Shown here: positions 8,800-64,000 of the stretch, in pieces
Numbering within the stretch: position 1 is the first letter of the stretch
Layout: each line of letters begins with the position of its first letter
Assembly (NCBI GenBank): GCA_965205975.1
Contig: OZ242195.1
Coordinates: forward strand, 2,432,001 to 2,496,000
Direction of reading: 5' to 3'
DNA length: 64,000 nucleotides
From: Candidatus Latescibacterota bacterium
Lineage (GTDB): Bacteria > Latescibacterota > UBA2968
The notes under the pieces: model-generated
Database searches by the model: none
Told to the model about the DNA's origin: nothing
The model's input: the letters and a program-made list of their open reading frames with translations, nothing else
Made by a program: the position numbers and the translations under genes

Positions 8800-8827
8800 A
8801 CTAACACCAAAGGAAGAGGGTAGATCA

Positions 8828-10564
8828 ATGGCATTGCAAACCGTGAAATTCACTGTGGCGGAACGAATGGCAGAACTGGAAGCAAAGGCGGAACGTTTTC
8901 GGACCTTAGTTAAGACAGCAGAAAGCATAGATGCGAAGACACTAATCAAGGCATTTGATGAGGAATGGAACCGAGAACGCAACTTATTGTCAGTTGGGTT
9001 TATTGGACCGTACAGTGCTGGTAAATCAACGACGATCGCGGCACTTACGGGACGGGACGACATCGCCATTGATGCCGACATTGCGACGAGCGAAACCACT
9101 GAATATGACTGGAACGGTATCAAGTTAATCGATACTCCCGGGTTGTGGACGGAGCGCAAAAAACACGATCAGATAACCTACGATGCTCTGCGCCAGGCTG
9201 ATTTATTGATATTTACCTTGACCTACATGCTGTTTGATAAGGCGACCGTCGATCACTTCAAGGAGTTGGCATTTGAGGAAGGGTATCAGAACAAAATTCT
9301 GCTGTTAATCAACAAGGTGAATGATGAGGCAGGAAACATAAATGAACGGATCGAAGCCTATCGCGACAGCATTGACATAGCACTTAAGCCACATGATGCA
9401 CAGACGTTCACGCAATGTTACATCGATGCTCGCGATTACTTAGACGGGATTGATGAAAGTGACCAAGAGTTGATTGATGAAAGCCGTTTTAATGCGTTCG
9501 TCAAAACCTTGAACCATTTTGTGGACCGACAAGGAAAGATGGGGCAATTGGAAACACCAGTGCAGATACTAAAGACCCATATTGACCTCGCGTTGCAGCG
9601 ACTGGAGCAAGCCAAAGGAGAGGTAGCCGTATATCCCGAGATCCTCAACCGAGTCACCCGCGAGGTCAGAAATGGTCGTCATCAGTTTCGAGCAAAGGTG
9701 CGCGTGATCATTGCCGATATGGTTGCATCTGTTGCGCGACAGGGAAGCCTGATGGCCTCTGGTGTCGGTACCGAGGATTCGAATGTTAGCGAAGCCGAGA
9801 GTAATAAGGCTATTGAGGAAGCCTGCGAGAAGGCACAGCAGGGGATATCTGAGGTCATTAAAGACATTATCTCTAACCTCCAAGAAGAAGTTAAGGAAAT
9901 TTGTACCAGCAATCTGGCGGATACTTATTTTTCGCCCGCGCTGACACACGACGCGGTATCCAGTCCAAACCTGACCGATACCGAAGGCATTGCGACGCGC
10001 CGCCGGCAATGGGAGAGTCTGTCGCAAATTGCAGAGGGGGTCGGTGTCGAATTAGCGAAATTGGCTCAAGGTGCTGGTGCTATGGGTAAAGGCGGTCTAT
10101 TAGCCGCTGGACAGGTAAGAGGGGCTCCCCTGCATAAAATTGTACTCCAGGGAGGTAAGGCTTTTGGCATGAAGTTTAAGCCGTGGCAGGCCGTCAACGT
10201 AGCAAAAAACATCGGCAATGCAGCAAAATTTCTCGGTCCGGTAGTGCAGGGGGTCGGGATAGGTTTGGACATATTGCAGATGCGCAAGGAAGATAAGCAG
10301 TCAAAGAGGATTTCGGAGGCGAAACTCAAAGTTATGGCTCAGTTCAACGAGATTGGACAGAAACTAAAAAGAGAGTTTGAAGATCAGTTGCGGGAAGTTG
10401 AAAAACAGACCTTTGACCTAATCGCTGATGAGGTAGAAAATGCACAAAATGCCTATCAAAAAGCTAACACGACAAATGATGAAACATCTAAGGCACTCTT
10501 AGAATTGCGCGATGAGTTGAGCGCACTCCTAAAGGCTGACCGCAAGGCTGTAATTTTGGCCTAA
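8828..10564 (+). CDS. Dynamin-like GTPase (LeoA-like)
   Basis: G1 GPYSAGKS, DADIAT, YDWNGIKLIDTPG, INKVN; Gly-rich segment and KFKPWQAVNVAK typical of the LeoA/HP0731-type family. Confidence 0.85.
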   Translation: MALQTVKFTVAERMAELEAKAERFRTLVKTAESIDAKTLIKAFDEEWNRERNLLSVGFIGPYSAGKSTTIAALTGRDDIAIDADIATSETTEYDWNGIKLIDTPGLWTERKKHDQITYDALRQADLLIFTLTYMLFDKATVDHFKELAFEEGYQNKILLLINKVNDEAGNINERIEAYRDSIDIALKPHDAQTFTQCYIDARDYLDGIDESDQELIDESRFNAFVKTLNHFVDRQGKMGQLETPVQILKTHIDLALQRLEQAKGEVAVYPEILNRVTREVRNGRHQFRAKVRVIIADMVASVARQGSLMASGVGTEDSNVSEAESNKAIEEACEKAQQGISEVIKDIISNLQEEVKEICTSNLADTYFSPALTHDAVSSPNLTDTEGIATRRRQWESLSQIAEGVGVELAKLAQGAGAMGKGGLLAAGQVRGAPLHKIVLQGGKAFGMKFKPWQAVNVAKNIGNAAKFLGPVVQGVGIGLDILQMRKEDKQSKRISEAKLKVMAQFNEIGQKLKREFEDQLREVEKQTFDLIADEVENAQNAYQKANTTNDETSKALLELRDELSALLKADRKAVILA

Positions 10565-10645
10565 ATGACTCTGGTTTGAATGCAAATATTACAAATTTTG
10601 TTTCACCAAAGTAGCTGTAAACCGCTTGGAGCAAGGACAAACAAT

Positions 10646-11986
10646 ATGCCATATTTGATGCAAACAAATAAAGGCGAGGAACTCAACAGACTTTATCCAG
10701 AAGATCGCCCTGTAAACGACTGGTATCGTTTTGTTTTGTCATACCCACCACATCTTGTCAGGCATTATATTTCGCGTTTTGAACTCGATGAAAAAAGTTC
10801 TGTTTTAGACCCCTTTTGTGGCACGGGTACAACTTTAGTAGCCTGTAAAAAACGGGGGATAAAGAGTGTTGGTATCGAGGCTAATCCCGTTGTCAAATTC
10901 GCCGCAAGTGTTAAAACTGATTGGAATATAGACCCAGACGTTCTTATTGATCATGCAGAAATGGTTGCGTCAGAAACAATAGAGCTACTTTTGTCGGAGG
11001 GTGTTGAGGACGACCCTCTCTTTCAATCTCTGGATAAAGATGAAACCACAGAGCTTCGGACACTTACCCCAGACCAGGAAAAGTTAATTATTACAAACTC
11101 AATCAGCCCCAAACCTTTACATAAGGCTTTGGCTCTTATAGAAAAAATCCACGAATTAAAGCACAACAGATGTTATGATTATGAACGTTTAGCACTCGCA
11201 AAACAGTTGGTTTATACAGCGAGCAATTTGCGTTTTGGACCAGAAGTTGGCGTAGGCAAAGCAAAACCCGACTCGCCTGTGGTTGGCCCCTGGTTAGCTG
11301 GTATTAGAAGTATGTGTGAGGATTTAATCCAGGTCAGACCCAATGCCCATATTCCCTCAGTCGTTCATTTTGGCGATGCACGCAATATGAGACAGTTTTT
11401 AGAACCTCAATCTATCGATGCTGTGATCACATCGCCGCCGTATCCGAATGAAAAGGATTATACCCGAACAACGCGCCTGGAGTCTGTATTATTGGGATTT
11501 ATGACTGATAGACACGACCTGAGAACTCATAAAAATAACTTAATAAGATCCAATACTCGAGGTGTTTACAAAATAGATAATGACAAAGACTGGGTAGCAA
11601 AATTCGATAGCATACAAAAATTGGCAAAAAAAATAGAAAGGCGTCGGATCGAATTAAACAAAACATCGGGATTCGAAAAATTATACGCTCATGTTGTTCG
11701 ACATTATTTTGGAGGCATGACTCGGCATTTAGAAACCCTGAAACCAATTTTGAAACCAGGTGCTTGTCTTGCCTATGTCGTTGGCGATCAGGCTTCTTAT
11801 TTTCGCATTCTAATCAAAACGGGAAACTTATTGGCAGAGATTGCGGAGCGATTAGGTTATAAAGTCATAGATATCGATTTATTTCGAAAAAGATTCTCGA
11901 CTGCAACTCAGCAATATATCAGGGAAGAGGTTGTTCTACTCCGCTGGGAAGGTCAATCTAAGGGTCAAAAATATGCCACCAAATAA
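10646..11986 (+). CDS. Site-specific DNA methyltransferase (alpha-class amino-MTase, probably m4C)
   Basis: Motif I LDPFCGTGTT precedes motif IV TSPPY. Start uncertain (10580/10646/10658). Confidence 0.88.
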   Translation: MPYLMQTNKGEELNRLYPEDRPVNDWYRFVLSYPPHLVRHYISRFELDEKSSVLDPFCGTGTTLVACKKRGIKSVGIEANPVVKFAASVKTDWNIDPDVLIDHAEMVASETIELLLSEGVEDDPLFQSLDKDETTELRTLTPDQEKLIITNSISPKPLHKALALIEKIHELKHNRCYDYERLALAKQLVYTASNLRFGPEVGVGKAKPDSPVVGPWLAGIRSMCEDLIQVRPNAHIPSVVHFGDARNMRQFLEPQSIDAVITSPPYPNEKDYTRTTRLESVLLGFMTDRHDLRTHKNNLIRSNTRGVYKIDNDKDWVAKFDSIQKLAKKIERRRIELNKTSGFEKLYAHVVRHYFGGMTRHLETLKPILKPGACLAYVVGDQASYFRILIKTGNLLAEIAERLGYKVIDIDLFRKRFSTATQQYIREEVVLLRWEGQSKGQKYATK

Positions 11987-12779
11987 CGATCCACGCTATT
12001 CACAGATTATTGCGAAAATCTTCGAAGCAAAATTTCGAGAAGGTAGAAGAGCAATTCGTTTTGAAAGAACCGAGATTGTCAATGCAGCGAGAGATTTGGG
12101 AATTGAATTACCAAAAAATCTGGGAGATATCATTTATTCATTCAAATTTCGCAACCAACTTCCCGATTCTATAAAAGAAACAGCACCGGACGATAAAGAA
12201 TGGGTGATAGTAAATCGGGGAAGGTCTCAATACGCATTTGAATTGAAAGGAACATCGAGGATTTTGCCAGATCCAATGCTGACAATCACCAAAATACCAG
12301 ACGCAACCCCTGGTATTGTTGCTAAATATTCTTTCGATGATGAACAAGCTCTATTAACCAAACTCCGCTACAATCGAATGCTCGACATTTTTACTGGCAT
12401 CGCCTGCTATTCTTTACAGAATCATTTACGCACAACTGTCCCCGGAGTTGGGCAAATTGAAACGGATGAAATCTACGTTGGAATAGACAAAAAAGGGGTT
12501 CACTATGTCTTTCCCGTTCAGGCAAAAAGTGGTAAAGACACGCTTGGTGTTGTCCAGATTGAACAAGATATAGCATTATGTAATCACCGATTTCCCACTT
12601 TGATTTGCAGAGCAATTGCTGCTCAGTTTTTACAAGAAAATGTGATTGCGCTATTTGAATTAGAGTTAATAGATGGCGAAGTGAAAAAAGCCTCAGAAAG
12701 GCACTATCAGTTGGTCCCTCAAGAATATCTTACGGATGAAGAATTGATGAACTATCGTCTGAGATTTGATGACCCATAG
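11973..12779 (+). CDS. Probable type II restriction endonuclease
   Basis: Overlaps the MTase stop by 14 nt; PD-(D/E)xK-like core ETDEIYVG...PVQAK. Confidence 0.7.
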   Translation: MPPNNDPRYSQIIAKIFEAKFREGRRAIRFERTEIVNAARDLGIELPKNLGDIIYSFKFRNQLPDSIKETAPDDKEWVIVNRGRSQYAFELKGTSRILPDPMLTITKIPDATPGIVAKYSFDDEQALLTKLRYNRMLDIFTGIACYSLQNHLRTTVPGVGQIETDEIYVGIDKKGVHYVFPVQAKSGKDTLGVVQIEQDIALCNHRFPTLICRAIAAQFLQENVIALFELELIDGEVKKASERHYQLVPQEYLTDEELMNYRLRFDDP

Positions 12780-34687: not shown

Positions 34688-35221
34688 ATGTGGCGTCAAT
34701 TGGGAATCATCGCGCTTGGTATCGCGCTATTTGCATGTAGGCCCGATGTTCAATTGGTAAAAGATGGACACGAAGAATACTACGTCTATTGGGATGACGC
34801 TCACAAACGGTATCTCAGACATGGGTTATACCAGTCATTTTACGAAAGTGGTCGCCAGCGATCGGTTGGTAAATACGAACACGATATAAAAGTGGGTGTT
34901 TGGACACACTGGTATGAAAACGGGCAAAAACAAGGTGAAATGGACTGGGTAGATGGCAAGCCCGAAGGCATAGTGACAGAATGGTACAAAAACGGACAGG
35001 AAAAAAATACGGGAACGTGGGAAAATGGTGGGCGACACGGTCTCTCGACCTGGTGGTATGCAAACGGACAAAAAGAAAAAGAAGTGAACTACATAGAAGG
35101 AGAACCCGACGGAATCTGGACGTATTGGGATTCGACGGGTGTAATGACAAAAAAGCAGTACTGGGATCGCGGTGCATTTTTGCGGGTTGAAGAGGAAACG
35201 AATAGACGAATAGACGAATAG
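34688..35221 (+). CDS. MORN-variant repeat (YwqK-like) lipoprotein
   Basis: Lipobox LFAC; repeated G.W..WY.NGQK units. Confidence 0.85.
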   Translation: MWRQLGIIALGIALFACRPDVQLVKDGHEEYYVYWDDAHKRYLRHGLYQSFYESGRQRSVGKYEHDIKVGVWTHWYENGQKQGEMDWVDGKPEGIVTEWYKNGQEKNTGTWENGGRHGLSTWWYANGQKEKEVNYIEGEPDGIWTYWDSTGVMTKKQYWDRGAFLRVEEETNRRIDE

Positions 35222-35244
35222 ACGAACCCCACCCTACCACCCAA
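35196..35244 (+). repeat. 49-bp dispersed repeat, copy 1
   Basis: aaa(cgaataga)x3cgaaccccaccctaccacccaa; exact reverse complement of 43671-43719. Confidence 0.9.
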
Positions 35245-43670: not shown

Positions 43671-43719
43671 TTGGGTGGTAGGGTGGGGTTCGTCTATTCG
43701 TCTATTCGTCTATTCGTTT
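43671..43719 (-). repeat. 49-bp dispersed repeat, copy 2 (inverted)
   Basis: Exact reverse complement of 35196-35244. Confidence 0.9.
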
Positions 43720-50827: not shown

Positions 50828-51550
50828 CTACGCATTACCATTTGTTCCATACATATAATCCAGATACAATTTTTCCAAATCCTCATGCTCCAATTCAGCA
50901 CGGGTGCGCTCCATGAGCAACTGCCCTTCCTTCATAATACCTACCCGGTCAGCGAGAGAACGCGCCCTGAAAATATCGTGTGTGGACATAAAAATGGCTT
51001 TGCCTTCACCTCTCAACTCTTCGAGCAAATCCATAAACTCAGCACCGGCTTGTGGATCTAAACCAGCGGTCGGCTCATCCAGAATAACTGCCGGTGCATC
51101 TCGAATGATGACAATGGCAATACCCACCTTTTGTCGCATCCCTTTAGAAAACGCCTTGACCCGCTGTTCAAAGGCTTGCTCCTGTAATCCCACGCGCTCC
51201 AAAATACGATAATATCCATCGCGGTCAGTTTCTTTGCCAGCCAAACTCGCAAAAAAATCCAGATTCTGTCGTGCAGTAAAGTTGCCATAAAGCATGACAT
51301 TTTCAGACAGATATGCGACATACTTCTTCGCCTCAAGCGGGTCTCGCGTCACATCAATATCATTAATCTTTGCCGTACCCTCAGTTGGCTCAATAAAGTT
51401 CAACATCAAATTGATAGCCGTTGATTTGCCTGCCCCATTTGCACCCAGCAAACAGAATATCTCTCCCGAGGGCACTTTCAGATTCAAATTGTCCAGTGCC
51501 AGAACACCATCTTCATACCGCTTCGAAAGTTCGATTGCTTCAATCATCAC
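50828..51550 (-). CDS. ABC transporter ATP-binding protein
   Basis: GANGAGKS, FSKGM signature, ILDEPTAGLDP, H-loop STH. Confidence 0.96.
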   Translation of the reverse strand: MMIEAIELSKRYEDGVLALDNLNLKVPSGEIFCLLGANGAGKSTAINLMLNFIEPTEGTAKINDIDVTRDPLEAKKYVAYLSENVMLYGNFTARQNLDFFASLAGKETDRDGYYRILERVGLQEQAFEQRVKAFSKGMRQKVGIAIVIIRDAPAVILDEPTAGLDPQAGAEFMDLLEELRGEGKAIFMSTHDIFRARSLADRVGIMKEGQLLMERTRAELEHEDLEKLYLDYMYGTNGNA

Positions 51551-51564
51551 GCCTCCTTATAGCC

Positions 51565-53172
51565 TTATCGCCGCGTCAGCTTAACACCGTACCACACCAC
51601 GCCAACAACCAATCCGATCACACCGAGAATCAGCATACTACTCAACAAGAGATTCGTGCGTGCGGTAACGTGAATGCGTACCGTCTTATCCTGCGCCTCA
51701 ACAGATCTGTTATCTGCCATTGCCTGTGTCTGAATTTGAACCTCATAATCTCCCACGCCGACATCGTCGGGCGGCATAAATGTCAGTTGAACAGCGCGCT
51801 CTTTTGAAGGCAGCAGTTCGGAAATCACATCTGGCTCAACCGTTGATCGCCAATTGGGCGGCATATTGGCGCGAATCGCCACATTGTCCAAACGCCTCGT
51901 CCCATCGTTATACACGGTCACTTCCATAAAAACATCTTCGTCAATGCTGATCTCATGATAGAGATTTACAGCACGGACCTCGATGCGCCCCACGCCTCTC
52001 GGCACCAGTTCCAACTTGACTTTACTAACATCAAGCGTATCCAGTTCAGCCGCCGAAAACATGCGTTCTTGAATGGGTTGTAACCTTCGCCAAACTTCCT
52101 GGGGCAACACAAGGGCGTAAAACTCGATGCGTTTGTCAATCGCCACATCCACATCTGAGCGTTCGGGCAAATACACTTGTAAAGACAGATCGTGACTCGT
52201 CTCATTTTGCCGAAAATTGATCTGGCTCAAACGCGCACCTGACCGCGTAAATTGCGCGTTGATTTGCTTCGGCAGGTTCACAACCGCCAATTGAAAAGCA
52301 GCTCTCCCACTCGAAAATCGCTCAACCCGCACCGCATAAGTTGCGCTTTCTCCCAGGTCTGCCTCTTGTGAAAACTGCATCACTTCCAGAATTGGAATCG
52401 CTTTCTCTGATTCGGCTTCTACTTTCACTGGCATTTGTTTGGTCACATCCAAATACTCCATTTGGATTGTAATCTGATCGGCCTCTTCGTCCAGAAGTTG
52501 AAAGGTGAGCGATTTTTCTTCGTATAATTTAAGCGACGGCACAATCTGATCATAGGGTTTGCCAATAATGGTTCCCCCCTGATAAATGGACACAATGATA
52601 TTCTGAATCTCCAAAAGCGATGTCAGGCGTGCCTTTGACATATCCTGGTCGAGGGCGTCTAAGCCTGCGATTTCTACACCGATTTCGGCCAACTCTGACG
52701 TTCCGGATAAATAGGTCTCTGCCTCCGACACATTAGACGAGTTCTTCAAGGTCACATCAACCATCCGCCGTCCATCGGGCAAAATATATTTTTTTGCTTC
52801 CATCACTGAAATATGCGTGGCATCGCGTAAAAAATTCAGCTTTGTCTCGCGCAATGTCAACACGGCTTGCTTGTAAAGAACTGAAGCCTCCTCAAAGGCC
52901 TTTTGCGCGTCATTGAGTTCTTTCAACGTGTAAATTTTTTCTTTAAACAATTCATCTGCAATCTCCAATTCCCTTTTCTTATTTTTCAGGTCTTCTCTGC
53001 GCCGATCCAAATCCACTTCGGCTTTGCGAAGGCGCAATTCATTCAACAATTGCACCTTTGTTTTGCCTGTATTCGTCGGTGCGCTGACATCTTCTGTACC
53101 TTCAAGTTCTCCTACCCACACCATCACAAAGAACGCACAACCAACGCCCCATATCGCACCTATCCTATTCAA
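51565..53172 (-). CDS. Exported coiled-coil + Ig-like (NEW3/NPCBM-associated) protein with C-terminal TM
   Basis: Signal peptide, alpha-hairpin-like coiled coil, VYNDGTRRLDNV...PPNW...PPDDVGVGDYEV, C-terminal hydrophobic helix followed by RR. Confidence 0.75.
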   Translation of the reverse strand: MNRIGAIWGVGCAFFVMVWVGELEGTEDVSAPTNTGKTKVQLLNELRLRKAEVDLDRRREDLKNKKRELEIADELFKEKIYTLKELNDAQKAFEEASVLYKQAVLTLRETKLNFLRDATHISVMEAKKYILPDGRRMVDVTLKNSSNVSEAETYLSGTSELAEIGVEIAGLDALDQDMSKARLTSLLEIQNIIVSIYQGGTIIGKPYDQIVPSLKLYEEKSLTFQLLDEEADQITIQMEYLDVTKQMPVKVEAESEKAIPILEVMQFSQEADLGESATYAVRVERFSSGRAAFQLAVVNLPKQINAQFTRSGARLSQINFRQNETSHDLSLQVYLPERSDVDVAIDKRIEFYALVLPQEVWRRLQPIQERMFSAAELDTLDVSKVKLELVPRGVGRIEVRAVNLYHEISIDEDVFMEVTVYNDGTRRLDNVAIRANMPPNWRSTVEPDVISELLPSKERAVQLTFMPPDDVGVGDYEVQIQTQAMADNRSVEAQDKTVRIHVTARTNLLLSSMLILGVIGLVVGVVWYGVKLTRR

Positions 53173-54523
53173 AATACCCCATCACCTCCCTCAAATTTTC
53201 CAGCGCATTGATATAGCCATCCTGACTCTGAAACAGCCGCTCTTGTCCCGCAAAAAAGAGATCCCGAAACGTTTCAACCTGGTTGTCTGTCACCTGTCCC
53301 AGATCGCGCAAACGCTCCTGAATTTCAAGCCGCCTGCTGTCCATTTGGAGGCGTCGCGTATTGATCTCCCGTTGCAAAATCCGATCTTGTAGTGTCTGGT
53401 AGTGTTGCCGCACATCGCGCTCAACCTGCTCGCGTCGGTCTCGAAACGATGCCTGCACCTGATACAATCGCGCACGCGCAGCCCCAGTTTGTCCATAGCG
53501 AGAAAATCCCGAGAGAATCGGCATTGAAAATTGAAAAAGTGCGAACTTATTTGTATCTCGCATTATAAAACGCGAATCCAAAGGCAGGTTACCTGTACGC
53601 AAGAGCAATACATCTGAAGAGGCATCCAGACGCCAGGTGCGCTGGCTGCGCGTCAGATCAAATCCCAGGACCTTATCACCACTTTCCATGCCAACTTTTA
53701 TTCCAAGATCCGGCAAGTAGTCCAACCGCGTTTCATGAAATGCGCGTGAGACCTCAGCAACTTCCTCGCCAAGTCTTTCAATCTCTACATCGCGGCTCAG
53801 AGCTATTGCAACGGCATCTTCCAAACTCATTTCAAAATCCTCAACCTCCCCAACCAACATCACGTCTTGCACCATATCGCGCCCCATCAACCGCAAGAGA
53901 TCAAAGGTCAACCGTGCTTTTTGCCCCAACAAGACACTGATCTGCGCTTCTTGTTCCAAAGAATCTAACTGCGCCGTTAGTAAATCAAATTCTTTTGCCA
54001 CACCGTGTTCGTATTTCACCCGAATACGCCGCAATTTTTCCCGCACATTGTCGAGTACCTCGCGTCGGTTGGCAATTTGCTGCCTTTTAACAATTGTCAA
54101 ATAGAAATTGCGCCTCACCTGTGACAACACGCGCCGCGTTTGTCGTTCGTAGTCAAGCCGCGCTAATCGCATTCGCGACCGATACGCCACTTCTTCAGGT
54201 GCATCAGCACCAAACTCCAACACGCGCTGTCGCGCATGCAAAATGGCTTCATCGCGAAATAGATCACTATCTATGTGTCGCAGATCTGGCACATTGTACC
54301 GGGTCTTCAAATCCACCTGTGGAAAAAACCGGGATCGCACCACCCACTTATCGTAATCTATCTCCTCAACGCGCTGTCTGGCAGACAGTAGAGTTTCATT
54401 GTGCGCTCGCGCCAGTGCCAAACAGGTCTCAATCTCCAGCACCCCACCTTGTTGTGTATGACTAACAGGTGCCCAGGACATCAGGATACATAAAAACACC
54501 AAGCGATTCAAAAAACGCACCAT
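53165..54523 (-). CDS. TolC-family outer-membrane efflux protein
   Basis: SD GGAGG, signal peptide, two OEP-like repeats (FFPQVDL / YLPDLGI; YEHGVAKEFDLLTAQ / RDLGQVT). Confidence 0.82.
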   Translation of the reverse strand: MVRFLNRLVFLCILMSWAPVSHTQQGGVLEIETCLALARAHNETLLSARQRVEEIDYDKWVVRSRFFPQVDLKTRYNVPDLRHIDSDLFRDEAILHARQRVLEFGADAPEEVAYRSRMRLARLDYERQTRRVLSQVRRNFYLTIVKRQQIANRREVLDNVREKLRRIRVKYEHGVAKEFDLLTAQLDSLEQEAQISVLLGQKARLTFDLLRLMGRDMVQDVMLVGEVEDFEMSLEDAVAIALSRDVEIERLGEEVAEVSRAFHETRLDYLPDLGIKVGMESGDKVLGFDLTRSQRTWRLDASSDVLLLRTGNLPLDSRFIMRDTNKFALFQFSMPILSGFSRYGQTGAARARLYQVQASFRDRREQVERDVRQHYQTLQDRILQREINTRRLQMDSRRLEIQERLRDLGQVTDNQVETFRDLFFAGQERLFQSQDGYINALENLREVMGYFE

Positions 54524-54536
54524 AACCTTTCCTCCG

Positions 54537-54649
54537 AAGGCAGCCGTTGAAGCCTGTGTCAATAACCGCACTAATCTCTCTGCTACTGTCACTGGTTCCC
54601 TCATACTCAGAGAGATAATGCACCTCAGAGCATGTAGGCCAATTATCAT
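54537..54649 (-). pseudogene. Remnant of clan AA aspartic protease (AF_0612-like)
   Basis: MIIG...IISLSM, then frameshift to GTSDSSREISAVIDTGFNGCL; truncated at the tolC RBS. Confidence 0.5.
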
Positions 54650-54987: not shown

Positions 54988-56502
54988 TTAACGCACATCG
55001 TATTTTAGAAATGACACATACGTTCCAATAAAAAGCAGTAGGGATAAGAGGATGAGCAATAGGATGTCAATGAGTGTCGCTTGCACAACAGAAACTATCG
55101 ACATCTTTTGATACTGAAACACAGGAATCTCATTCAGATTGACCTTTTCGAGCTTTTGTATTTCTGAAAAAGTATTCAGCAATTCGCCGTCCTCCCGGGA
55201 TTCTACGATTATTCCCTCTGTTATGATTTCTTCCGCTACGTCGCCATCAGATGTTACGCGTACTATTTCCCTATTTTCAATTTTTGTTTTTATAAATGCA
55301 ATATATCTTTCTCTATATCCCCTTAATAACTTGATAAAATGCCTAAAGCTATCCATTCCTGTATCAGCGAGGTCCGCCGTTGCATATGTCATTGCAGAGG
55401 CAGGAGATAGGCGGGAAAAGGTGATTGCAAGATTAGCCAAATTTTGTTGTCGTTGTTGGTATTCTCGCTCCATCCGAGCTTGTGCATTTTCAAGCTCAGC
55501 ATCTCGCTGTTCATGAATTTCTTTTTTCTTTTTTTTATATTCATTCCATCGCCTTTCCGCTTGTTCCATACTTTTCCGACTGAATATCTGATCCTGATCG
55601 TACAAAAGCTTCTCACTAATCTTATAATATTTTTTAAAAATATCATTCATTAATTGCGTTTTTTTGATACGGTATTGCTGGCTTGAAGGAACGTGAATAA
55701 ACTGTGTAGCAAGGATACTGCTACTTTTGGGAATGATAAGTACGACCATCACCCAAATAAAAAGTCCGACCAAAAAGGAGATACTCGAACTCTTCGTACG
55801 AGCCGAAATAAATGCACCAATCAAAAAAAAGACGGTTAGATACAGCAGAAATATGCAAAAAATCAAAATCAGACGTAGATAGTCATCGCTTTCAAACTGA
55901 ATATTAGGCAATAGAAGAAGCACAGCCATGCTCAGGAGCATGGGAATCAATAAGGGAATAAATAAACAGAGCAGTCCGCCGATCAATTTGCCCAAGATAA
56001 GCGTGTCACGCGGCACGGGAAATGAGGCGATCAAACGCAGAGTGCCACCTTCTTTTTCTCCTGAAAGCGTGTTATACGAGAAGACTACGGCTAAGAGGCT
56101 AAGGATATATTTTATGATGAAAGTCAGACTAAAATCACCGAACAGTGCCCAAACAGGATTGCCCTCAATTTTGCTGCCATGAAGTTCTGGTGTGCTATAC
56201 GAATTAATATTCAGATTTCTGCCGATGTAATTCGCTATGCCGACATTGAAAATCGCCAGCACTTCTGGCGGTTTACTGATGCGGATACCTTCGCTTTCAA
56301 TGTCTTCATATGTTTCTTGGGATTTCAGCGAATTTCTATTAAGTGCCTGAATGCCGTTGTAGTCATTCACAAGATCGCTATAATTGCACACACTGAGATA
56401 AAAACTCAAAAAAATCAGCATCGCACTCAGGATGCAGGCAATGACAAATGTCGCGTCGGAAAACCGCGCCAACAATTCTTTTTCTATAATTATTTTGAGC
56501 AT
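54988..56502 (-). CDS. ABC-2-type transporter permease, copy A
   Basis: IIEKEL start, SYN.LSGEKE.GTLRL..SFPVPR...GKL, TM bundle, large helical loop, C-terminal FLKYDVR. Confidence 0.9.
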   Translation of the reverse strand: MLKIIIEKELLARFSDATFVIACILSAMLIFLSFYLSVCNYSDLVNDYNGIQALNRNSLKSQETYEDIESEGIRISKPPEVLAIFNVGIANYIGRNLNINSYSTPELHGSKIEGNPVWALFGDFSLTFIIKYILSLLAVVFSYNTLSGEKEGGTLRLIASFPVPRDTLILGKLIGGLLCLFIPLLIPMLLSMAVLLLLPNIQFESDDYLRLILIFCIFLLYLTVFFLIGAFISARTKSSSISFLVGLFIWVMVVLIIPKSSSILATQFIHVPSSQQYRIKKTQLMNDIFKKYYKISEKLLYDQDQIFSRKSMEQAERRWNEYKKKKKEIHEQRDAELENAQARMEREYQQRQQNLANLAITFSRLSPASAMTYATADLADTGMDSFRHFIKLLRGYRERYIAFIKTKIENREIVRVTSDGDVAEEIITEGIIVESREDGELLNTFSEIQKLEKVNLNEIPVFQYQKMSIVSVVQATLIDILLLILLSLLLFIGTYVSFLKYDVR

Positions 56503-56549
56503 GGAGATACATACCTAAAAAATGAAAAGAGTAACCAATTAACAGAACC

Positions 56550-56580
56550 ACCATCGTGGTCGAAATAAGACCACGATGGT
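56550..56580. other. 12-bp perfect hairpin upstream of permease A
   Basis: accatcgtggtc-gaaataa-gaccacgatggt; no clear U-tract. Confidence 0.6.
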
Positions 56581-56814
56581 AGTAATACCAATCAGATATA
56601 GAAATCTTGCACTTTGTAATCAGGTATGGTCTGTCTATGCCTATTTTGCACGCCGAAATGCAGTCAGACAGTCAGGTTCTCGAAAATGAGCTACAATGTC
56701 ATGCAAGATTAATTCATACGATTGGTATAACATAGAATGTGAAGCCCTGGACAAAAGTCTGTTAGCACTATTTACTATTTATGGTTGGACCCCACTCTTG
56801 GATATCAAACCCGA

Positions 56815-57168
56815 CTAACTACCTGCGTCTGCGTACTCCACATCTCCCGAATCATGAGCATGATGAAATACACACTTTGCAAAATTTTTAGCCTTGTACT
56901 TTCCGCTAGGTTTGCACTTAAAACCTTTAAGATGGTGTCTCACTTCATCCGCATCATACATGTAGAAACACTCGTAACTAGCATCGTCGCTCACCGTCCT
57001 GAGAGCCTCGTCTAGCGTGTCATACTCACATTCTGTTTCTTGATAAGCATCTTCAGTCACATCATGGGCCACTGCGCTGTCAGGAATGACCCAAGGCACC
57101 ATCATACCAGCCGAACACAAAATAGTGCTGAATTTCGGCACATTGTTGGGCAACCAGTTTGCAATCAT
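56815..57168 (-). CDS. Small exported Cys-patterned protein A (117 aa)
   Basis: SD GGAGG; 34-aa leader ending AVA; mature part with 4 Cys; paralog of 59193-59543. Confidence 0.85.
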   Translation of the reverse strand: MIANWLPNNVPKFSTILCSAGMMVPWVIPDSAVAHDVTEDAYQETECEYDTLDEALRTVSDDASYECFYMYDADEVRHHLKGFKCKPSGKYKAKNFAKCVFHHAHDSGDVEYADAGS

Positions 57169-57433
57169 TGTGTAACCTCCTGCAATGGATTAAAAAACGA
57201 AACAACCTGATAATTTACACACTTCTTCAGTTTGGGCATAATGCCCAAAACAATTACGGTTCCTACTTTCCTATTGACAATTCAACAACAGGTAAAACGC
57301 GCCCGTTCTGTATATCGACAAGAAAATCCGACCGATTCTCCTACCGACTACATCCAGGGCTTAATGCTTCCGGCGAATGAGTTAAACCTCCTTTCTGTTT
57401 ATCAGTGATAAACTCTCAAATCCCTCATATTCC
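57169..57433 (-). repeat. Duplicated upstream region (paralogous to about 59544-59810)
   Basis: Shared blocks such as aattcaacaacaggtaaaacgcgccc and tatatcgacaagaaaatccgac. Confidence 0.9.
57341..57433 (-). pseudogene. Remnant of the dsbA-like gene 3' end
   Basis: Encodes ...ITDKQKGGLTHSPEALSPGCSR*, compared with VTDKQKGGLTHSSEAVSPGCGR* ending at 59717; frameshifted upstream. Confidence 0.85.
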
Positions 57434-57520
57434 GCTTGTCATCCGAGACTTGGACTTTGTCTGAGAGTTTGCTACCCCTCCAAGACATTTATTTATCCGT
57501 AGATGCCGCAGAAGTTCCAA

Positions 57521-58936
57521 TCAACGTACATCGTACTTCAGAAATGATACGTAAGTACCAATAAAAAAGAGCAGTGAAAGCAGAATAAGCAAGAGCATAT
57601 CAATGAGTGTCTCTTGAATAACATAAGCAAGTGGCATTTTTTCATATATAAACATAGGCATTTCATTCACATTGGGCTTTTCGCTTGTCTCGACATTTCT
57701 AAAATCATGTAGTTTTTCTTTTATAAACGCGATATATCTTTCCTTGTATGCGTATGCTGATCTAATGAAATGGTCAAAGCTACCCAAGCCCGTGTCAGCA
57801 AAATTCATAGTTGCATGGGTCATTGCAGCGGCAGGAGATATGCGGGAAAGGGTAATTGCAAGGGTGGCCAAATTTCGCTGTTGTTGTTGGTACTCTCGTT
57901 CCATCTGAGCTTGTTTCTTTTCCAGCTCAATATGCTTTTGTTCACTAATTCCATCCATTTTTTTTAGATATTCGTCCCGTAGCTTTTCCCTGAGTTCGCG
58001 ACTCGTTTCTATATTTTGTTGAGCGGTATAATCTTCTGTCAGTTGCGTCCGCTTCTGGTCATATTTATCAGAAAGATCATCCCATAATCGGACTTTTTCA
58101 ATACGATATTGCTGGCTTGAAGAAACCTGTATAAACTGTTCAGCAAGGATACTGCTACTCTTTGGAATGACTAGTACGACCAATACCCAAATAAAAAGCG
58201 CGATTAAAAAGGACACATTCACACTCTTGGTGCGTGCCGAAACGTACGTACCAATTAAAAAAAAGACGGTTAGATATAGTAAAAATATGCCCAATATAAA
58301 AATCAGCCGAAGCCAATCATTGCTTGCAAATTGAACACTCGGCAATAGAAGGAGGACCGCTAAGCTCAAGAGTGTGGGGATCAATAATGGGATGAATAAA
58401 CTGAGCAGGCCCCCGATCAACTTCCCCAAAATGAGTGTGTCTCGTGGCACGGGAAAGGATGCGACCAATCTGAGGGTGCCCCTTTCTTTTTCTCCAGAGA
58501 GCAGGTTATACGAGCAGATAATGGCTAAGAGGCTAAGTATATATTTTATGATGAAAGTTAGATTAAGATCGCCAAATAATGCCCAAACCGGATTGCTCTC
58601 AATCTTGCTACCCTGAAGTTCTGATGTAATAAACGAATTAATGTTCAGATTTCTACCAATGTAATTCGCTATGCCGACATTGAAAATCGCCAGCACTTCG
58701 GGGGGTTTGCTTATATTTATACCTTTAGTACTAATGCCCCAATACGTTTCTTGTGCTTGGAGTAAATTTCTATTAAGTATTTGAGTGCCATTGTAGTCAT
58801 CCACAAGATCGCTATAATTGCGTACACTGAGATAAAAGCTCAGAAAAATCAGCAGAGCACTCAGAATACAGATAATGACAAAAGTTGTATCAGAGAATCG
58901 CGTCAACAGTTCTTTTTCTATGATTAATTTGAGCAT
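57521..58936 (-). CDS. ABC-2-type transporter permease, copy B
   Basis: Close paralog of 54988-56502 (ISKPPEVLAIFNVGIANYIGRNLNINS identical). Start set at MLKLIIEKELL. Confidence 0.9.
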   Translation of the reverse strand: MLKLIIEKELLTRFSDTTFVIICILSALLIFLSFYLSVRNYSDLVDDYNGTQILNRNLLQAQETYWGISTKGINISKPPEVLAIFNVGIANYIGRNLNINSFITSELQGSKIESNPVWALFGDLNLTFIIKYILSLLAIICSYNLLSGEKERGTLRLVASFPVPRDTLILGKLIGGLLSLFIPLLIPTLLSLAVLLLLPSVQFASNDWLRLIFILGIFLLYLTVFFLIGTYVSARTKSVNVSFLIALFIWVLVVLVIPKSSSILAEQFIQVSSSQQYRIEKVRLWDDLSDKYDQKRTQLTEDYTAQQNIETSRELREKLRDEYLKKMDGISEQKHIELEKKQAQMEREYQQQQRNLATLAITLSRISPAAAMTHATMNFADTGLGSFDHFIRSAYAYKERYIAFIKEKLHDFRNVETSEKPNVNEMPMFIYEKMPLAYVIQETLIDMLLLILLSLLFFIGTYVSFLKYDVR

Positions 58937-59192
58937 AGGAGACATACCTTGCAAGGTAAGCAGATGAGAATGGACAGAGCCCCCATAGCAGTCTAAACTC
59001 TCACTGCGATGGGGGCAACATATATGTAAAGGCAACGGGCAAAACTTGTCAGTGCTATGGATGGCGTGAATTCAAAATCTTGGATCTCAAAATCAATGAA
59101 CTGTTGACGCCTATTTGCGTGTGAAAACCGCGGACGAATACTCAGCATTACAACAGAGACCCATAACACTTTTGTCACCGACTAACAGCTTC

Positions 59193-59543
59193 TCAGGAAC
59201 CTCCACCTCCATTTCCGTCGTCTCCGTCGTCTCCACAATTTGATACACACCTTGCTGTACCATCGGCTTTAAAACATATTCCCCATATGGTGTATCCGAA
59301 ACTCCAATTCCCTGTTGTTTCGAGATAATCCTTGTTTTTTGAGGAACATTTGTTTCTTCCCTCAGTGTCCAACGCACTCATAGCGGCCCCGGGAGTAGCA
59401 TAATCGCAGGGCACAGAGACAGAATAATAATGTATCGTGCATGCCATAGCACTACTGGGAAGTAGCCAAGGCACCATCATACCAGCCGAACACACAATCC
59501 TACCGATTTTCGACATATTATTGGACAACCAATTTGCAATCAT
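59193..59543 (-). CDS. Small exported Cys-patterned protein B (116 aa)
   Basis: SD GAGGAGG; 34-aa leader ending AMA; mature part with 6 Cys and a Gly/Asp tail. Confidence 0.85.
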   Translation of the reverse strand: MIANWLSNNMSKIGRIVCSAGMMVPWLLPSSAMACTIHYYSVSVPCDYATPGAAMSALDTEGRNKCSSKNKDYLETTGNWSFGYTIWGICFKADGTARCVSNCGDDGDDGNGGGGS

Positions 59544-59716
59544 TGTGTACCCTCCTCAAAGATAATTAAAACGAAACTACTGGACAATCTACAAATTTCT
59601 TCGGTTTGGGCATTAATGCCCTTAATCATTAAATATCACCTCCTCTCCTATTGTAATTCAACAACAGGTAAAACGCGCCCTTTCTTTATATCGACAAGAA
59701 AATCCGACTGATTCTA

Positions 59717-61957
59717 CTACCGACCACATCCGGGGCTTACTGCTTCGGATGAGTGAGTCAAACCTCCTTTTTGTTTATCCGTTACAAACCACTCAAATTC
59801 CTCATATTCCCAAACATCCGTCAGCTTGCCGTTAATATAAAATGTAGGCGTTCCACGGACGTTTAGAATGGATGCCTGTTTTATATCTTTTTTTATTTTT
59901 GAAGCATATTTACCCGTGTCCAAACAGCGGTTGAATTGTATAGAATCAAGTCCCAATTCAGTAGCATAGTGCTTCAGATGGCCTGACTCTAATACATCTT
60001 GTTTGGCGTATAAAATATCGTGATATTCCCAGAATTTTCCCTGTTCACGAGCGCATTCAGATGCTTCATGAGCTTTTGGGGCATTCTTGTGAAACGGCAA
60101 GGGAAAATGTCTGAATACGAGACGTACTGTTTCAGAATAATTTGCCAATAATCTATTCAATACTCGTCCAGCTTGAGCAGAATAAGGGCACTGAAAATCA
60201 CTGAAGACCACAATTGTGAAAGGCGCGTTTGGTGCGCCGATAGATGGCAAGCCTTCATTGCTCAGGTTGTAAATGGGTATCTCCGGAGGATCGAAGTAGA
60301 TCTCTATTTCCGCTTCATCAACCAATTCGTGAATGAACTGTTCCCTTTCATTCTCAAATTTTTTGTTCCGAGCAATGCGTTCTGCGACTGGCCAAAGGCG
60401 TTCTCTAAATGTTTTTCCTTCTATTGGATCAATTTTCATCATACGCAGGATTTCATTTTCCCGGATTTCATCGGGCAACAAAGCCAATCTTGGGTTCTTA
60501 AGCATCGTGCTATGAAGTATATTGAATTGTTCTTCGACTTGCACATCTGATGGCGTAGCATCAATGTTTCGCAAGAATAAGTCAATACTGGTGCCTGCGT
60601 TCTTAGCTGCCTCTTGTAGAACAACAGGTTTGAAAATCTCTCGAATTTGTTCAACCTTCAGATCATAAATTTGCTTTGCTTCAGAGTAGAAATAATCGTC
60701 GTCAAAATCATCTTCCGTTATCATACCACCCTTAAATTTCGCGTAGATTCGTTTACCGCTATTATCTCTAACTATCTGTCTTGATTGCTGGTCACCTTGC
60801 AGTTCTAAAGTTACGCGCCTTGAAAGTTCGGAAAAATGATCCCTGCTTCTCAATTTTATCGGTCTGGAGTTTACAAAAAGAGACGGTGTGCTATGAACGC
60901 CCAGTCTATGGCCTTCTCTTATGTCTTGATGAACCCTATCTGCAAATTTGCCTGAATCGAGGTCATGTCTAAATTTCTCCAGATCGAGGTCTAATTTCTG
61001 TGCATACGCGATCAAGTCTTCTTTTTCGAGTTTATCAAAATTTTCAAATAATAAATTGCGATATTCCCAGAACTTTCCCTGCGCTCGGGCGCATTCAGCA
61101 GCTTCATGTGCTTTTGGGGCCTGACGATGAACGGGAAGGGGGAAGTGTCGAAAAACAACCTTGAGCTTATTATCAAATACGGCCAATAGCTGATTTATAA
61201 TCGGCGAAAGTTGACTACAATAAGCGCATTCAAAATCGCTAAATTCTACAATCGTAACAGGTGCGTCCGGCACCCCTTGCATTGGAAATCCTTCAATAGA
61301 AATATCATATACTGGAGGATTGGGTTCTTCAAGATAGGTTTCTACACGAAATTGATTGTGTAATTTCATCATATATTCTTGCTCTGCTTTCATTTGGTTT
61401 TGATTTGCCAGTTGGTCTCGAATGACGTTCTTCAACTGCTCCCCAAAATCTTGTTGTGGGTCTAAATCAATACGCATAACATCGAATATCTTTCTCCAGC
61501 GAGAGTCTCTATCAAGATTCCTAAATTCAGGTTGCCGATTGATAGTATCAAATATGTTCCTCATCTCTTCGTCTATCTCAGAATCTTTGACAGTGGGAAC
61601 ATCAACTTCAGATTCGAAAATCTTGCTCGCAGGAATACCCAATTCTTTGGCTTTGTGGGCTAATAATTTTTCTCCAACAATTGCATTTAGCCGATCCAAT
61701 TTCAATTCATACAGTTTTTGCTGAGCAGGATAAATTTTGGTATGGTCAAGATCATGTTCATAAATTAACCTACCATTGTATTTCGCAATCACTGTATCAG
61801 ATTTTACTTGATGCCCATAAACGAAACCGCATGGCAAGTGGAACAGAAAAGACGCCAAAATTGAGGGAAAAAAGAGCCTATAACTCCAAACAGGACATTG
61901 GTATATTCTCTTGAGCATAATAGAGATTGCGTATTTTGAGGCCATACATAAACTCAT
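59717..61957 (-). CDS. Tandem-duplicated DsbA/thioredoxin-fold protein (two helical + DsbA modules)
   Basis: EFSDFECAYC...RHFPL...HSTP and VFSDFQCPYS...RHFPL...RGTP; hydrophobic N-terminal segment. Start uncertain. Confidence 0.88.
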   Translation of the reverse strand: MSLCMASKYAISIMLKRIYQCPVWSYRLFFPSILASFLFHLPCGFVYGHQVKSDTVIAKYNGRLIYEHDLDHTKIYPAQQKLYELKLDRLNAIVGEKLLAHKAKELGIPASKIFESEVDVPTVKDSEIDEEMRNIFDTINRQPEFRNLDRDSRWRKIFDVMRIDLDPQQDFGEQLKNVIRDQLANQNQMKAEQEYMMKLHNQFRVETYLEEPNPPVYDISIEGFPMQGVPDAPVTIVEFSDFECAYCSQLSPIINQLLAVFDNKLKVVFRHFPLPVHRQAPKAHEAAECARAQGKFWEYRNLLFENFDKLEKEDLIAYAQKLDLDLEKFRHDLDSGKFADRVHQDIREGHRLGVHSTPSLFVNSRPIKLRSRDHFSELSRRVTLELQGDQQSRQIVRDNSGKRIYAKFKGGMITEDDFDDDYFYSEAKQIYDLKVEQIREIFKPVVLQEAAKNAGTSIDLFLRNIDATPSDVQVEEQFNILHSTMLKNPRLALLPDEIRENEILRMMKIDPIEGKTFRERLWPVAERIARNKKFENEREQFIHELVDEAEIEIYFDPPEIPIYNLSNEGLPSIGAPNAPFTIVVFSDFQCPYSAQAGRVLNRLLANYSETVRLVFRHFPLPFHKNAPKAHEASECAREQGKFWEYHDILYAKQDVLESGHLKHYATELGLDSIQFNRCLDTGKYASKIKKDIKQASILNVRGTPTFYINGKLTDVWEYEEFEWFVTDKQKGGLTHSSEAVSPGCGR

Positions 61958-62013: not shown

Positions 62014-64000
62014 TTATATTTTAAATCGGGACCCTACTCTGATCTTTTTTTTGCCGAATGACAAAACATCTGCGCTATTTGAATAGATGTGTTCAATTCG
62101 TTCATTCTCATTGATCATTAAAACCGTCATTTCTATCGAATCCTGGAAAGGCGGTTTCTGAATTTGGAATGCTACAGCTTGACCACTCTGGAATTCAAGC
62201 AAACCTGAAGAACAATTCTTAGCATCCATTGAAAAACCTAATTCCCTAACGACTAATAGTTTATCTTCATTTTCCTGGGGCATTAAAACGTAGGAAATCA
62301 CAACGCAGCCTTTTGCATTTAAGCTGAAAATCGCTGTCGGAATGGGACGAATTTTAGCACCGCCATCGTAAAACTCCCAACCTTGTATTTGAGGCTCTTT
62401 TTGGCCTTTTACGATACGAACATCCACCGTGTGTTTTGTAATGGGATAAATACCAAAATGACGCCCAGTATTATTTTGTGTATAGATCCCCCCATGGCGA
62501 TCCACCTGTGTTGCATATTCTGCGTTGAAATGAAAGAGTGATTCATAAGTATGGGTAAGACTATCTGTTGGTTCAAGAATATCCGTCATGATCCAAAAAC
62601 GACTTTTTAAAAAGAAAATCGAGCGCGTATGTAAAACGTTTATTCTCTCTTTACCAAATCCTTCATTATAGCTTGCATATACAAAATCGAAATCGTCATT
62701 CGTTATCCAACCAGCGCGAACCTTTTTGAGATTATACGCCTGGGATTTTGGTAATTTTTGCCCTTGCCCATCTACAATTACCACGTTATGAGCTTGCGAA
62801 GAACGTGCGTAAGCCTGCCAACTTGATGTCAGATCGCGCGTATAGTATCCAGGGTCTATAATGTGTAGCTGTCCATGTGAATACACGATAATACTCAGTT
62901 TATCTTCATGCCCATTTTGACCAATTGGGCCAGCATCAAACAAAAGATACGAATCTTGCCCTTCTACAGAAGACCGCATGACATATTGCCCAGCATAGGG
63001 AAACGCTTTTGATTGTCTATCCGGTATGATCCCTTTTTTTCCTTTTGTTGCAACCCATTGGAAATCTTGACGTTTCGGAAAGAGTAAAGCACCTTGTTGA
63101 ATTAAGGGAAAAATATCCGCATATACGCCATTATTTAGCGCAGGCATTATTCCATCCGGCAGCGATACATACAACCTGTAACTAAAGATCTGTTGTAAAC
63201 CTGCCATGAAGTCGATTGGGAATTTTTCCCCATTCCGAATCCCAAGATCAATAGAAGACAAAAGAGGTTTAAACGAGCTATCCGAGCTGGATATATCTGG
63301 TAATGCCCCATCCGGATAGACCAGATTACTAAAAAGCCTCATCATCCTATCCAGAGCCAAAAGGCGCAATTTTTCAGAGTCCTTCAATTCTGGAAATAAC
63401 ACACCGGTATAATAAATACCACAGCTTTCCTTTAATCGCCATTTGCTATCTTCCCGCGAAAATTTAATGAGATGATGGACTTGCTCCATCATACTACACA
63501 ACATTGTGCAAATAGCAGCAGAATCAAATAAAGGTGATTTTAGGAAGGAGTAAAAAGCCCAGGGCCATGAATATGTCAGTCTATGAGCACATTCAAGCGT
63601 GCGCCAATGATTTGTAATGCCACTACCCATTTCAGCATTTTCATTCCAGGCTTTGCCATTGCCTTCTAAGGGACTGAGTATCTTTTCACACCAATCCTTC
63701 ATCTGTCCAACAAAAGATTTAACATATCGCTCGTTACCGGTTTTTGAGAACGCTTTTCCAAGCACTACCCAGGATTCATGTCTTGCCAACTGCCACGTTG
63801 TTTCTTTTAGATGATTTCCCGTAAATTCCCAATCTATACTCTCCTTAAAGTTGTATGTAGTGTCCAAAATCGTAAATTTGTTTTTGCAAATTCTATCGGC
63901 TTCTCTAAGAACAAAGTCTTCACTGGCCCCCTCTGGTTCAATTTCCATATCGGAAAACCACCTGGGGACTGTACGGGTTCTTAAATGCAAAGCGAGAGCA
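62014..64000 (-). CDS. Heparinase II/III-like protein, 5'-truncated by window edge, with degenerate catalytic motifs
   Basis: WQLARH, WRTLEC, AGQYVMRS, FDAGP...HED, IDPGYY, AHNVVIVDG. Confidence 0.8.
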   Translation of the reverse strand, partial: ALALHLRTRTVPRWFSDMEIEPEGASEDFVLREADRICKNKFTILDTTYNFKESIDWEFTGNHLKETTWQLARHESWVVLGKAFSKTGNERYVKSFVGQMKDWCEKILSPLEGNGKAWNENAEMGSGITNHWRTLECAHRLTYSWPWAFYSFLKSPLFDSAAICTMLCSMMEQVHHLIKFSREDSKWRLKESCGIYYTGVLFPELKDSEKLRLLALDRMMRLFSNLVYPDGALPDISSSDSSFKPLLSSIDLGIRNGEKFPIDFMAGLQQIFSYRLYVSLPDGIMPALNNGVYADIFPLIQQGALLFPKRQDFQWVATKGKKGIIPDRQSKAFPYAGQYVMRSSVEGQDSYLLFDAGPIGQNGHEDKLSIIVYSHGQLHIIDPGYYTRDLTSSWQAYARSSQAHNVVIVDGQGQKLPKSQAYNLKKVRAGWITNDDFDFVYASYNEGFGKERINVLHTRSIFFLKSRFWIMTDILEPTDSLTHTYESLFHFNAEYATQVDRHGGIYTQNNTGRHFGIYPITKHTVDVRIVKGQKEPQIQGWEFYDGGAKIRPIPTAIFSLNAKGCVVISYVLMPQENEDKLLVVRELGFSMDAKNCSSGLLEFQSGQAVAFQIQKPPFQDSIEMTVLMINENERIEHIYSNSADVLSFGKKKIRVGSRFKI

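Follow-up and report, generated by a model that had tools for sequence, protein, structure and literature searches.

A polymorphic family of small cysteine-rich proteins encoded with ABC-2 permeases in a Candidatus Latescibacterota island, and its proposed two-step secretion

What does a bacterium do with two neighbouring small proteins that begin alike and continue unlike? The question is raised by a 64,000-nucleotide (nt) stretch of the complete, 5.56-Mb genome of a Candidatus Latescibacterota bacterium (assembly GCA_965205975.1, contig OZ242195.1, positions 2,432,001 to 2,496,000; hereafter the window, by whose numbering positions are given). Its minus strand encodes small protein A (59193-59543, 116 amino acids (aa), six cysteines) and small protein B (56815-57168, 117 aa, four cysteines), each gene with a GGAGG-type ribosome site just 5' of it; according to tblastn, they are the only two copies in the genome. 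The original prediction had likened the pair to bacteriocin, defensin or ribosomally synthesized and post-translationally modified peptide (RiPP) precursors. Our data favor, at somewhat better than even confidence, another answer, in which the small protein is secreted in two steps as a polymorphic, strain-specific effector cassetted with a permease. That A and B are two alleles of one polymorphic protein, each cassetted with an ABC-2 permease of the ATP-binding cassette (ABC) class, and that such cassettes are swapped, is moderately well supported.

The small-protein family is real and undescribed. Profile searches returned 13 matches among 5.8 billion proteins and 12 among 1.84 billion representatives, and a cluster look-up added four; 18 full sequences with about 12 core types were aligned, one 64-aa fragment being left out. 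Within the phylum the family occurs in three of 168 genomes, plus one contig (L041) whose homolog has an 8-nt deletion in the leader. Pfam and NCBIfam hold no family for A, B, 12 homologs or eight peptides from distant loci described below (nor for two from locus L060), a search of PDB sequences with the family profile gave one spurious match (E 0.019) and no real homolog, and 235 pattern matches from a JGI metagenome scan yielded no confirmed member. The ESM Atlas returned no usable match for the A core or B, which says nothing on novelty or absence. The literature searched, with subscription papers and supplements outside its scope here and below, contained nothing on the family.

Both leaders are 34 residues long, as originally proposed, ending in AMA (A) and AVA (B). 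At the proposed cut, whose position was assigned by script, small residues stand at -3 and -1 in 18/18 members, the leaders ending AxA, AxG or VxA; together with a hydrophobic h-region and a lysine at position 12 that is invariant in 13 aligned sequences, these are features of Sec signals cut by signal peptidase I. The weak hydrophobicity noticed at first was borne out, the best 12-residue Kyte-Doolittle mean being 1.76 in both A and B (family range 1.49-2.18), against a median of 2.31 and a lower quartile of 1.78 for the 686 signal-like N-termini that this genome yields at a cut-off of 1.45. No double-glycine leader was present in the 18 sequences. A lipoprotein was also considered and ruled out, as Cys18 is Tyr in P0006, P0008 and P0018 and there is no lipobox.

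Across 13 non-redundant members, mean identity is 72% in leaders and 23% in cores. The 29-nt identity between the leaders of A (59466-59494) and B (57091-57119) is genuine, and the two regions have no longer exact match in common, but the shared DNA does not stop at the leader: it is part of a tandem unit of ~2.4 kb comprising the 3' end of a DsbA gene, an upstream region, the small gene and a permease gene. Nor is the block wholly fixed, since synonymous changes occur in the two other genomes of the genus that carry the family (G002 and G012).

The cysteine counts of the mature chains were as first read (residues 35, 46, 66, 90, 99 and 103 in A; 47, 67, 85 and 99 in B), and the number is even in every one of the 18 members, as expected of paired cysteines. 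The spacing of 19 residues holds for C46-C66 (A) and C47-C67 (B); as a conserved family scaffold it fails, being found in 11 of 18, with its first cysteine absent in six; only the second and the late cysteine are invariant. Likewise, the A[KR]CV motif is a trait of A and the B-type cores and not of the rest, and the terminal GS is found in 12/18, although all 18 end in S or T. The first cysteine and a hairpin cysteine are both present in seven core types, both missing in four and never found singly, in classes that were read by hand from members not all independent of each other, with P0010 having a different second pair. From topology and co-occurrence, a disulfide would join the helix end to the last strand in all members (C66-C99 in A, C67-C99 in B) and another would join the first strand to the hairpin in many (C46-C90, C47-C85), so that the two cysteines 19 residues apart likely do not bond to each other. 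A could also have C35-C103, tying its N- to its C-terminus, where most members have instead a histidine at +1 and an HxH motif, likely a metal clamp.

The idea of one cysteine-stabilised alpha/beta fold shared by both proteins received support from AlphaFold, which predicts the same four elements in A (strand 36-48, helix 51-68, strands 72-85 and 88-101) and B (strand 37-44, helix 52-70, strands 75-84 and 91-101), at core pLDDT values of 79-89 and 94-98, respectively, with leader and tail unstructured; the tail of A is acidic and glycine-rich. The defensin comparison found no support. A cysteine-stabilised alpha-beta defensin has a helix CxxxC bonded to a strand CxC, and the core domain of none of the 18 has that spacing, A and B bearing a single helix-end cysteine. 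Defensins were not among the listed VIA-align matches, headed for A by dodecin (Z 6.9, root-mean-square deviation (rmsd) 2.3, 65 residues aligned), DUF74 (6.6), RcsF (6.2) and the APP copper-binding region (6.0), and for B by FvfA, RcsF and dodecin (Z 6.1-6.5); Foldseek found nothing at E 0.001 or better. The cores are thus predicted to be beta-alpha-beta-beta (dodecin/RcsF-like) domains. Dodecin, RcsF, DUF74/YbjQ, YdgH and the APP domain have the same arrangement (Z 6-7, rmsd 2.2-3.7 over 61-71 residues), the dodecin-like proteins at only 3-12% identity to A and B, which does not imply homology, and RcsF has a lipobox that A and B do not. Such matches may reflect a common arrangement, from which no function follows.

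Divergence among four loci (this genome, G002, G012 and L041) is far from even. The flanking DsbA, ATPase, NEW3 and TolC genes, described below, differ by a synonymous divergence (dS) of 0.21-0.37 (identity 84-97%), the leaders by 0.13-0.68 (62-76%), the permeases by 0.63-0.95 (68-76%) and the cores by 1.17-2.26, with a nonsynonymous divergence (dN) of 0.89-1.14 and identity of 20-31%. A steady leader before a hypervariable core, as originally described, is therefore upheld in that core divergence is several-fold the synonymous divergence of the flanks, far above that of neighbouring genes; judged by flank dS, however, the leader is not unusually conserved, and it is the core, and less so the permease, that is unusually variable. 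The proposed diversifying selection, in its classical form, did not fare so well: core dN (0.9-1.1) lies below dS in an alignment near saturation, so a dN/dS above 1 was rejected and positive selection is not demonstrated, as dS is raised along with dN. Exchange of old alleles fits this pattern better.

Exchange is also suggested by how leaders and cores are combined. In all five B-core proteins, the leader is closest (88-100% identity, once 100%) to that of a protein with only 17-25% core identity, and G002 and G012 carry a single small gene and a single permease each; like leaders with unlike cores, and one-cassette slots elsewhere, make it likely that cores are swapped by recombination. We compared contigs from five of 13 sequencing runs, among which no RNA dataset was listed, four near-identical runs being left out as possible sources. 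One contig each from runs X6 and X12 joins DsbA directly to gene B; a contig from X10 tracks the leader as far as 57091, where the 29-nt block ends, and from there departs from the window sequence into the core of another family member (by reading of the letters); the copy of this block in leader A is likely an upstream crossover arm; X5 gave short near-identical pieces only. In all three runs with B-core contigs, permease 2, encoded after gene B, is kept through its loops (25 differences over 1,850 nt in X6; 80 plus gaps in X12; 70 plus gaps in X7). In the X10 permease, codons 85-125, 293-328 and 375-451 are replaced. B-type cores are 85-92% alike across strains; the X6 core differs from B by six replacement and six silent codon changes, and changes among B-type alleles cluster on the helix (56938-57015; codons 52-57 and 80-83), a cluster that may mark a recognised face.

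The second cassette was probably imported. Permease 1 (57521-58936, after gene A) and permease 2 (54988-56502) are 71% identical and differ as much as permeases of different strains do, and between them lies a frameshifted remnant of a DsbA 3' end (57345-57433) that is 89-92% identical to the DsbA of other strains, compared with 83% to that of its own genome. A recent local duplication was rejected because permease dS, at 0.75, is the same as between strains. An inverted spacer was rejected as well, the opposite-strand joints falling on a palindromic hairpin. Gene B is separated from permease 2 by a 15-bp hairpin (56547-56583) that would be terminator-like or mRNA-stabilising, and another takes the equivalent position between gene A and permease 1 (58977-59016). 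The conserved non-coding region from DsbA to gene A (59544-59716, including the ribosome site) has a second copy ahead of gene B (57169-57344); Rfam had no match for it, and a promoter scan gave 8 sites against 14.5 expected.

The setting of DsbA, permeases, adaptor and TolC supplies most of the explanation for this locus, although it formed no part of the original prediction. Gene order, on the minus strand, is CBM9-like, glycosyltransferase (GT) GT2, GT4, GT28-like, GT4, heparinase-like, DsbA, A, permease 1, B, permease 2, TolC, NEW3 protein and ATPase, with a GC content of 0.39-0.42 over most of the length against 0.51 genome-wide. The heparinase II/III-like gene (62014-64000) extends beyond the window end, the other genes named before it lying upstream; a two-domain DsbA-like oxidoreductase (59717-61957) precedes gene A. 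Downstream of permease 2 follow a TolC-family outer-membrane channel with OEP domains (53165-54649, start codon uncertain), a NEW3-domain membrane protein (51565-53172) with an N-terminal adaptor-like helical hairpin and a C-terminal membrane anchor, and a stand-alone ABC ATPase (50828-51550). Both permeases have ABC2_membrane_2 and DUF3526 domains and are NosY/GldF-like (closest solved relative NosY, E 5.7e-7), and they vary most in hydrophilic regions around residues 281-340 and 401-460, mainly in outward loops. The hairpin of the NEW3 protein matches MexJ, ZneB, MexA and a MacA chimera (E 7e-4 to 1e-2). The small gene, its close permease, DsbA, NEW3 and an orthologous GT4 co-occur in the same three of 21 genomes of the genus (G000, which is this genome, G002 and G012). 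In G002, insertion sequences split DsbA, the small gene and the permease, DsbA being interrupted (L023:13238-18106, L024:586-1833). Two more distant permeases (27-29% identity) with an insertion sequence adjoin the island in this genome (L001:8158-11194) and were not seen at that position in G002 or G012.

On this basis we propose that the precursor would be exported by Sec and cut by signal peptidase I after residue 34, that the island DsbA would then form the disulfides, and that ATPase, permease, adaptor and TolC would pick up the folded protein in the periplasm and expel it, the capture in the periplasm being suggested by the signal peptide and DsbA only. The permease loops would likely read the cognate core, so that a single component would provide both export and self-protection. 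Cassettes would be swapped or added by recombination, with crossovers in the conserved DsbA end and leader at one side and in conserved parts of the permease or TolC gene at the other. Outside the cell, in the weakest step of the scheme, the core would most likely act in antagonism or recognition among related symbionts; the patchy island, exchanged alleles, stacked cassettes and co-varying transporter are typical of conflict or recognition systems and point to such a role, to which we give rather less than an even chance.

Several observations weigh against this proposal. To our knowledge, no ABC-2 permease of this family has been shown to take proteins from the periplasm. No immunity open reading frame (ORF) is conserved across the four spacers examined, and the mature chain is net negative in 14 of 18 members, down to -16, unlike cationic antimicrobials; acidic charge and lack of an immunity gene both weigh against a classical membrane-active bacteriocin, and the permease itself may fill the immunity role. 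Against a strict one-to-one code between core and permease stands permease 2, which shares a long second loop with the G012 permease though the cores are 20% alike, and co-inheritance of core and permease may be due to linkage alone. The fold-match scores are middling (Z 6-7). A profile of 12 distant leaders placed A at rank 9 (E 1.6) and B at rank 186 (E 76) out of 17,423 starts, neither being significant, although its top non-training match was the G012 member (E 0.018), so that the family is recovered weakly. Finally, 32 of 44 exporter loci had no small cysteine-rich candidate by our filter. The complex predicted for permease 2 and mature B scored 0.12, short of the 0.32 mark and without controls, and counts neither for nor against.

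How far the exporter and its cargo go together was followed through the phylum, where homologs of the NEW3 protein occur in 78 of 168 genomes. Among 44 loci centred on NEW3 genes or permeases, 12 held a small cysteine-rich candidate (two look spurious and two overlap), compared with six of 60 random windows; with the 32 empty loci, this indicates that the pump does not come with such cargo at every locus. Eight loci of another genus (g25) encode signal-bearing peptides of 59-95 aa, mostly with four to six cysteines and often just before the permease, one of them (L076) as a tandem peptide-permease array; no such peptides were seen in the loci of sister family f2. In three genomes, the pump adjoins FlmA-type RiPP genes that bring an inner-membrane ABC of their own, in keeping with a pump that serves the outer step. 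A signal-end motif, [WF]-x-L-P-x-x-A-x-A, defined after the fact, is present in 17/18 family members and 11/12 distant peptides, compared with two of 686 other signal-like starts of this genome, one of which (G000:C1:3786355) looks, by its N-terminal motif, like nickel superoxide dismutase and also has histidine at +1. A joint leader profile matched in 15 of 31 g25 genomes, and 15 of its 26 non-training matches in near-complete genomes had a NEW3 gene no more than 30 kb away, where 0.54 would be expected, some of the 26 sharing loci with training rows. The distant cores are not taken as homologous, because the family profile matched a 95-aa distant peptide at a probability of 0.5% and in the leader only. 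The g25 islands (L060, L064, L066-L078) hold arrays of small cysteine-rich, signal-bearing peptides around the same exporter, and also several secreted proteins of 255-330 aa without a Pfam family, GT2, a GT1-transglutaminase fusion, and TPR and DUF1573 proteins.

It is conceivable, though we put it forward only tentatively, that Latescibacterota have an undescribed secretion system in which an ABC-2 permease, a hairpin-plus-immunoglobulin-like adaptor and TolC export unrelated disulfide-rich mini-proteins that share the signal-end motif, matched cargo-permease cassettes being swapped and stacked and the transporter serving as specificity and immunity factor. The literature searched had no mention of DUF3526 and nothing on NEW3, an ABC transporter and TolC together, and a search combining Latescibacter, sponge, ABC and secreted returned only unrelated items.

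Among other explanations, a carrier for copper, nickel or zinc is the one that survives best, although we consider it unlikely. The N-terminal histidine, HxH and cysteine-rich tail would bind metal, a NosY-like ABC transporter would load or unload it, and variation would avoid piracy or phage. The histidine at +1 is found in 15/18 members, B included, all 15 having HxH after the last strand, and a tail of the CxCxxCxxxC type occurs in six of 18; the nearest solved permease is indeed NosY, and the predicted fold resembles that of the APP copper-binding domain (Z 4.7-6.0), whose disulfides, given in excerpts as C133-C187 and C158-C186 (PMC5119739) and C144-C174 (PMC5281630), are laid out like those proposed for A. 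However, A, which starts with a cysteine and has an extra late one instead, has no histidine site, and P0011 has neither site nor tail, both being intact genes; the island contains no metal uptake gene or TonB receptor, and related exporter loci encode peptides that lack histidine sites.

Slightly less probable still is a dispersin-like surface coat or host-facing protein, varied against host or phage recognition, with the glycosyltransferases remodelling the cell surface. Dispersin is of the same size class and follows a two-step route (excerpts of PMC5985334), co-oriented GT4, GT28-like, GT2 and heparinase-like genes lie upstream in all three genomes, GT2 recurs in distant exporter-peptide islands, and relatives come from sponge and marine metagenomes. 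Nevertheless, dispersin is positively charged whereas most members of this family are acidic, the GT2s of the distant islands are no more than 26-28% alike, and that over just part of the sequence, and a coat has no need for a co-varying permease. In G002, the GT2 is fused to a sulfotransferase.

Improbable, in our view, is a RiPP or glycocin-like precursor, whose leader the island glycosyltransferases would read to modify the core before export. A conserved leader block, with glycosyltransferases, an oxidoreductase and an ABC transporter in one island, would suit it, and the same exporter is found in true RiPP clusters. An FlmA-like precursor, radical SAM/SPASM protein, S8 and S41 peptidases and a peptide arginase adjoin the exporter at L049, L050, L058:19635-19793 and L065. 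In the island itself, Pfam and NCBIfam scans found no peptidase or maturase, and among the genes scanned no radical SAM, YcaO or lanthionine enzyme and no C39 domain, the ATPase being stand-alone and the permeases ABC2_membrane_2. Since the cut is of the signal peptidase I type, no peptidase or maturase was seen among the island genes scanned and the transporter is of the ABC-2 type, a RiPP or bacteriocin leader, as originally suggested, is unlikely; moreover, the cores are folded domains of 80-105 aa in which no Ser, Thr or free Cys that could act as acceptor is conserved. The view that a dispensable gene was simply duplicated and then drifted under relaxed constraint, although in keeping with the damaged L041 homolog and the broken G002 locus, is largely refuted and highly improbable, given core divergence several times that of flanking synonymous sites, fold-bearing cysteines kept in 18/18, the likeness of B-type cores across strains and a DsbA remnant that suggests import.

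If the proposed two-step secretion of a polymorphic effector is correct, a likely cargo class can be named for a pump that 78 of 168 genomes in this uncultured phylum encode, as well as for DUF3526 permeases. Latescibacterota from sponges have been singled out as prolific producers that have received little study (excerpts of PMC9426513). Cargoes without a maturase would probably be skipped by RiPP-centred mining, and the leader profile together with the exporter genes offers a direct route to a new set of natural disulfide mini-proteins, while A and B in one genome provide a clean cross test of whether an ABC permease can choose its protein cargo.

Elsewhere in the window, a perfect 49-nt inverted repeat of 8-nt tandem units (35196-35244 and 43671-43719) has its arms 8.4 kb apart, an ORF of 188 aa that looks coiled-coil-like contains three 120-nt coding repeats (5851-6163), and two GTPase-like genes stand ahead of a likely DNA methyltransferase gene and what may be a nuclease gene (6277-12779; labels from ORF reading), possibly a defence island.

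Among known systems, class IIa microcins such as MccV and MccL are disulfide-bonded, secreted, TolC-dependent proteins of ~80-90 aa with Dsb helpers, and resemble the island product in these respects; the island, in contrast, has no double-glycine leader, no peptidase-containing ABC and no small immunity protein. No AatD-like acyltransferase was seen in the island either. A second likeness is to polymorphic toxins of the Neisseria MafB type, with a constant N-terminus and exchangeable C-terminus encoded in genomic islands (abstracts of PMC3482391 and PMC5349182). A constant N-terminus with a recombining C-terminal module was found here as well, but the cores keep one predicted fold, the variable partner is a transporter, no conserved immunity ORF was seen downstream in the four spacers examined, and there are no promoterless C-terminal cassettes.

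Also comparable are the dedicated tripartite pumps that adjoin a ~10-kDa secreted protein in Escherichia coli, Aat with dispersin and Cex with CexE; as excerpts of PMC5985334 have it, a 10-kDa protein such as dispersin can pass such a pump. AatP is MacB-type, unlike the island permeases, and the cargo here differs in fold, charge and allele swapping. Closest of all is the heat-stable enterotoxin STII (STb), a small protein with a Sec signal that is exported, oxidized by DsbA and ejected from the periplasm by MacAB-TolC (excerpts of PMC5985334). With this system the island shares a TolC channel and a hairpin adaptor, although the adaptor otherwise differs, having only the helical hairpin plus immunoglobulin-like domains and a C-terminal anchor; the permeases do not have the MacB/FtsX fold and are of the ABC-2 type, the ATPase is a separate protein, and the cargo is polymorphic and encoded with its permease. 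The island is thus not a member of the MacAB-TolC group, because its permease is ABC-2 type with NosY nearest, but it likely works alike; the route is moderately well supported, and the locus is probably a new variant of two-step secretion.

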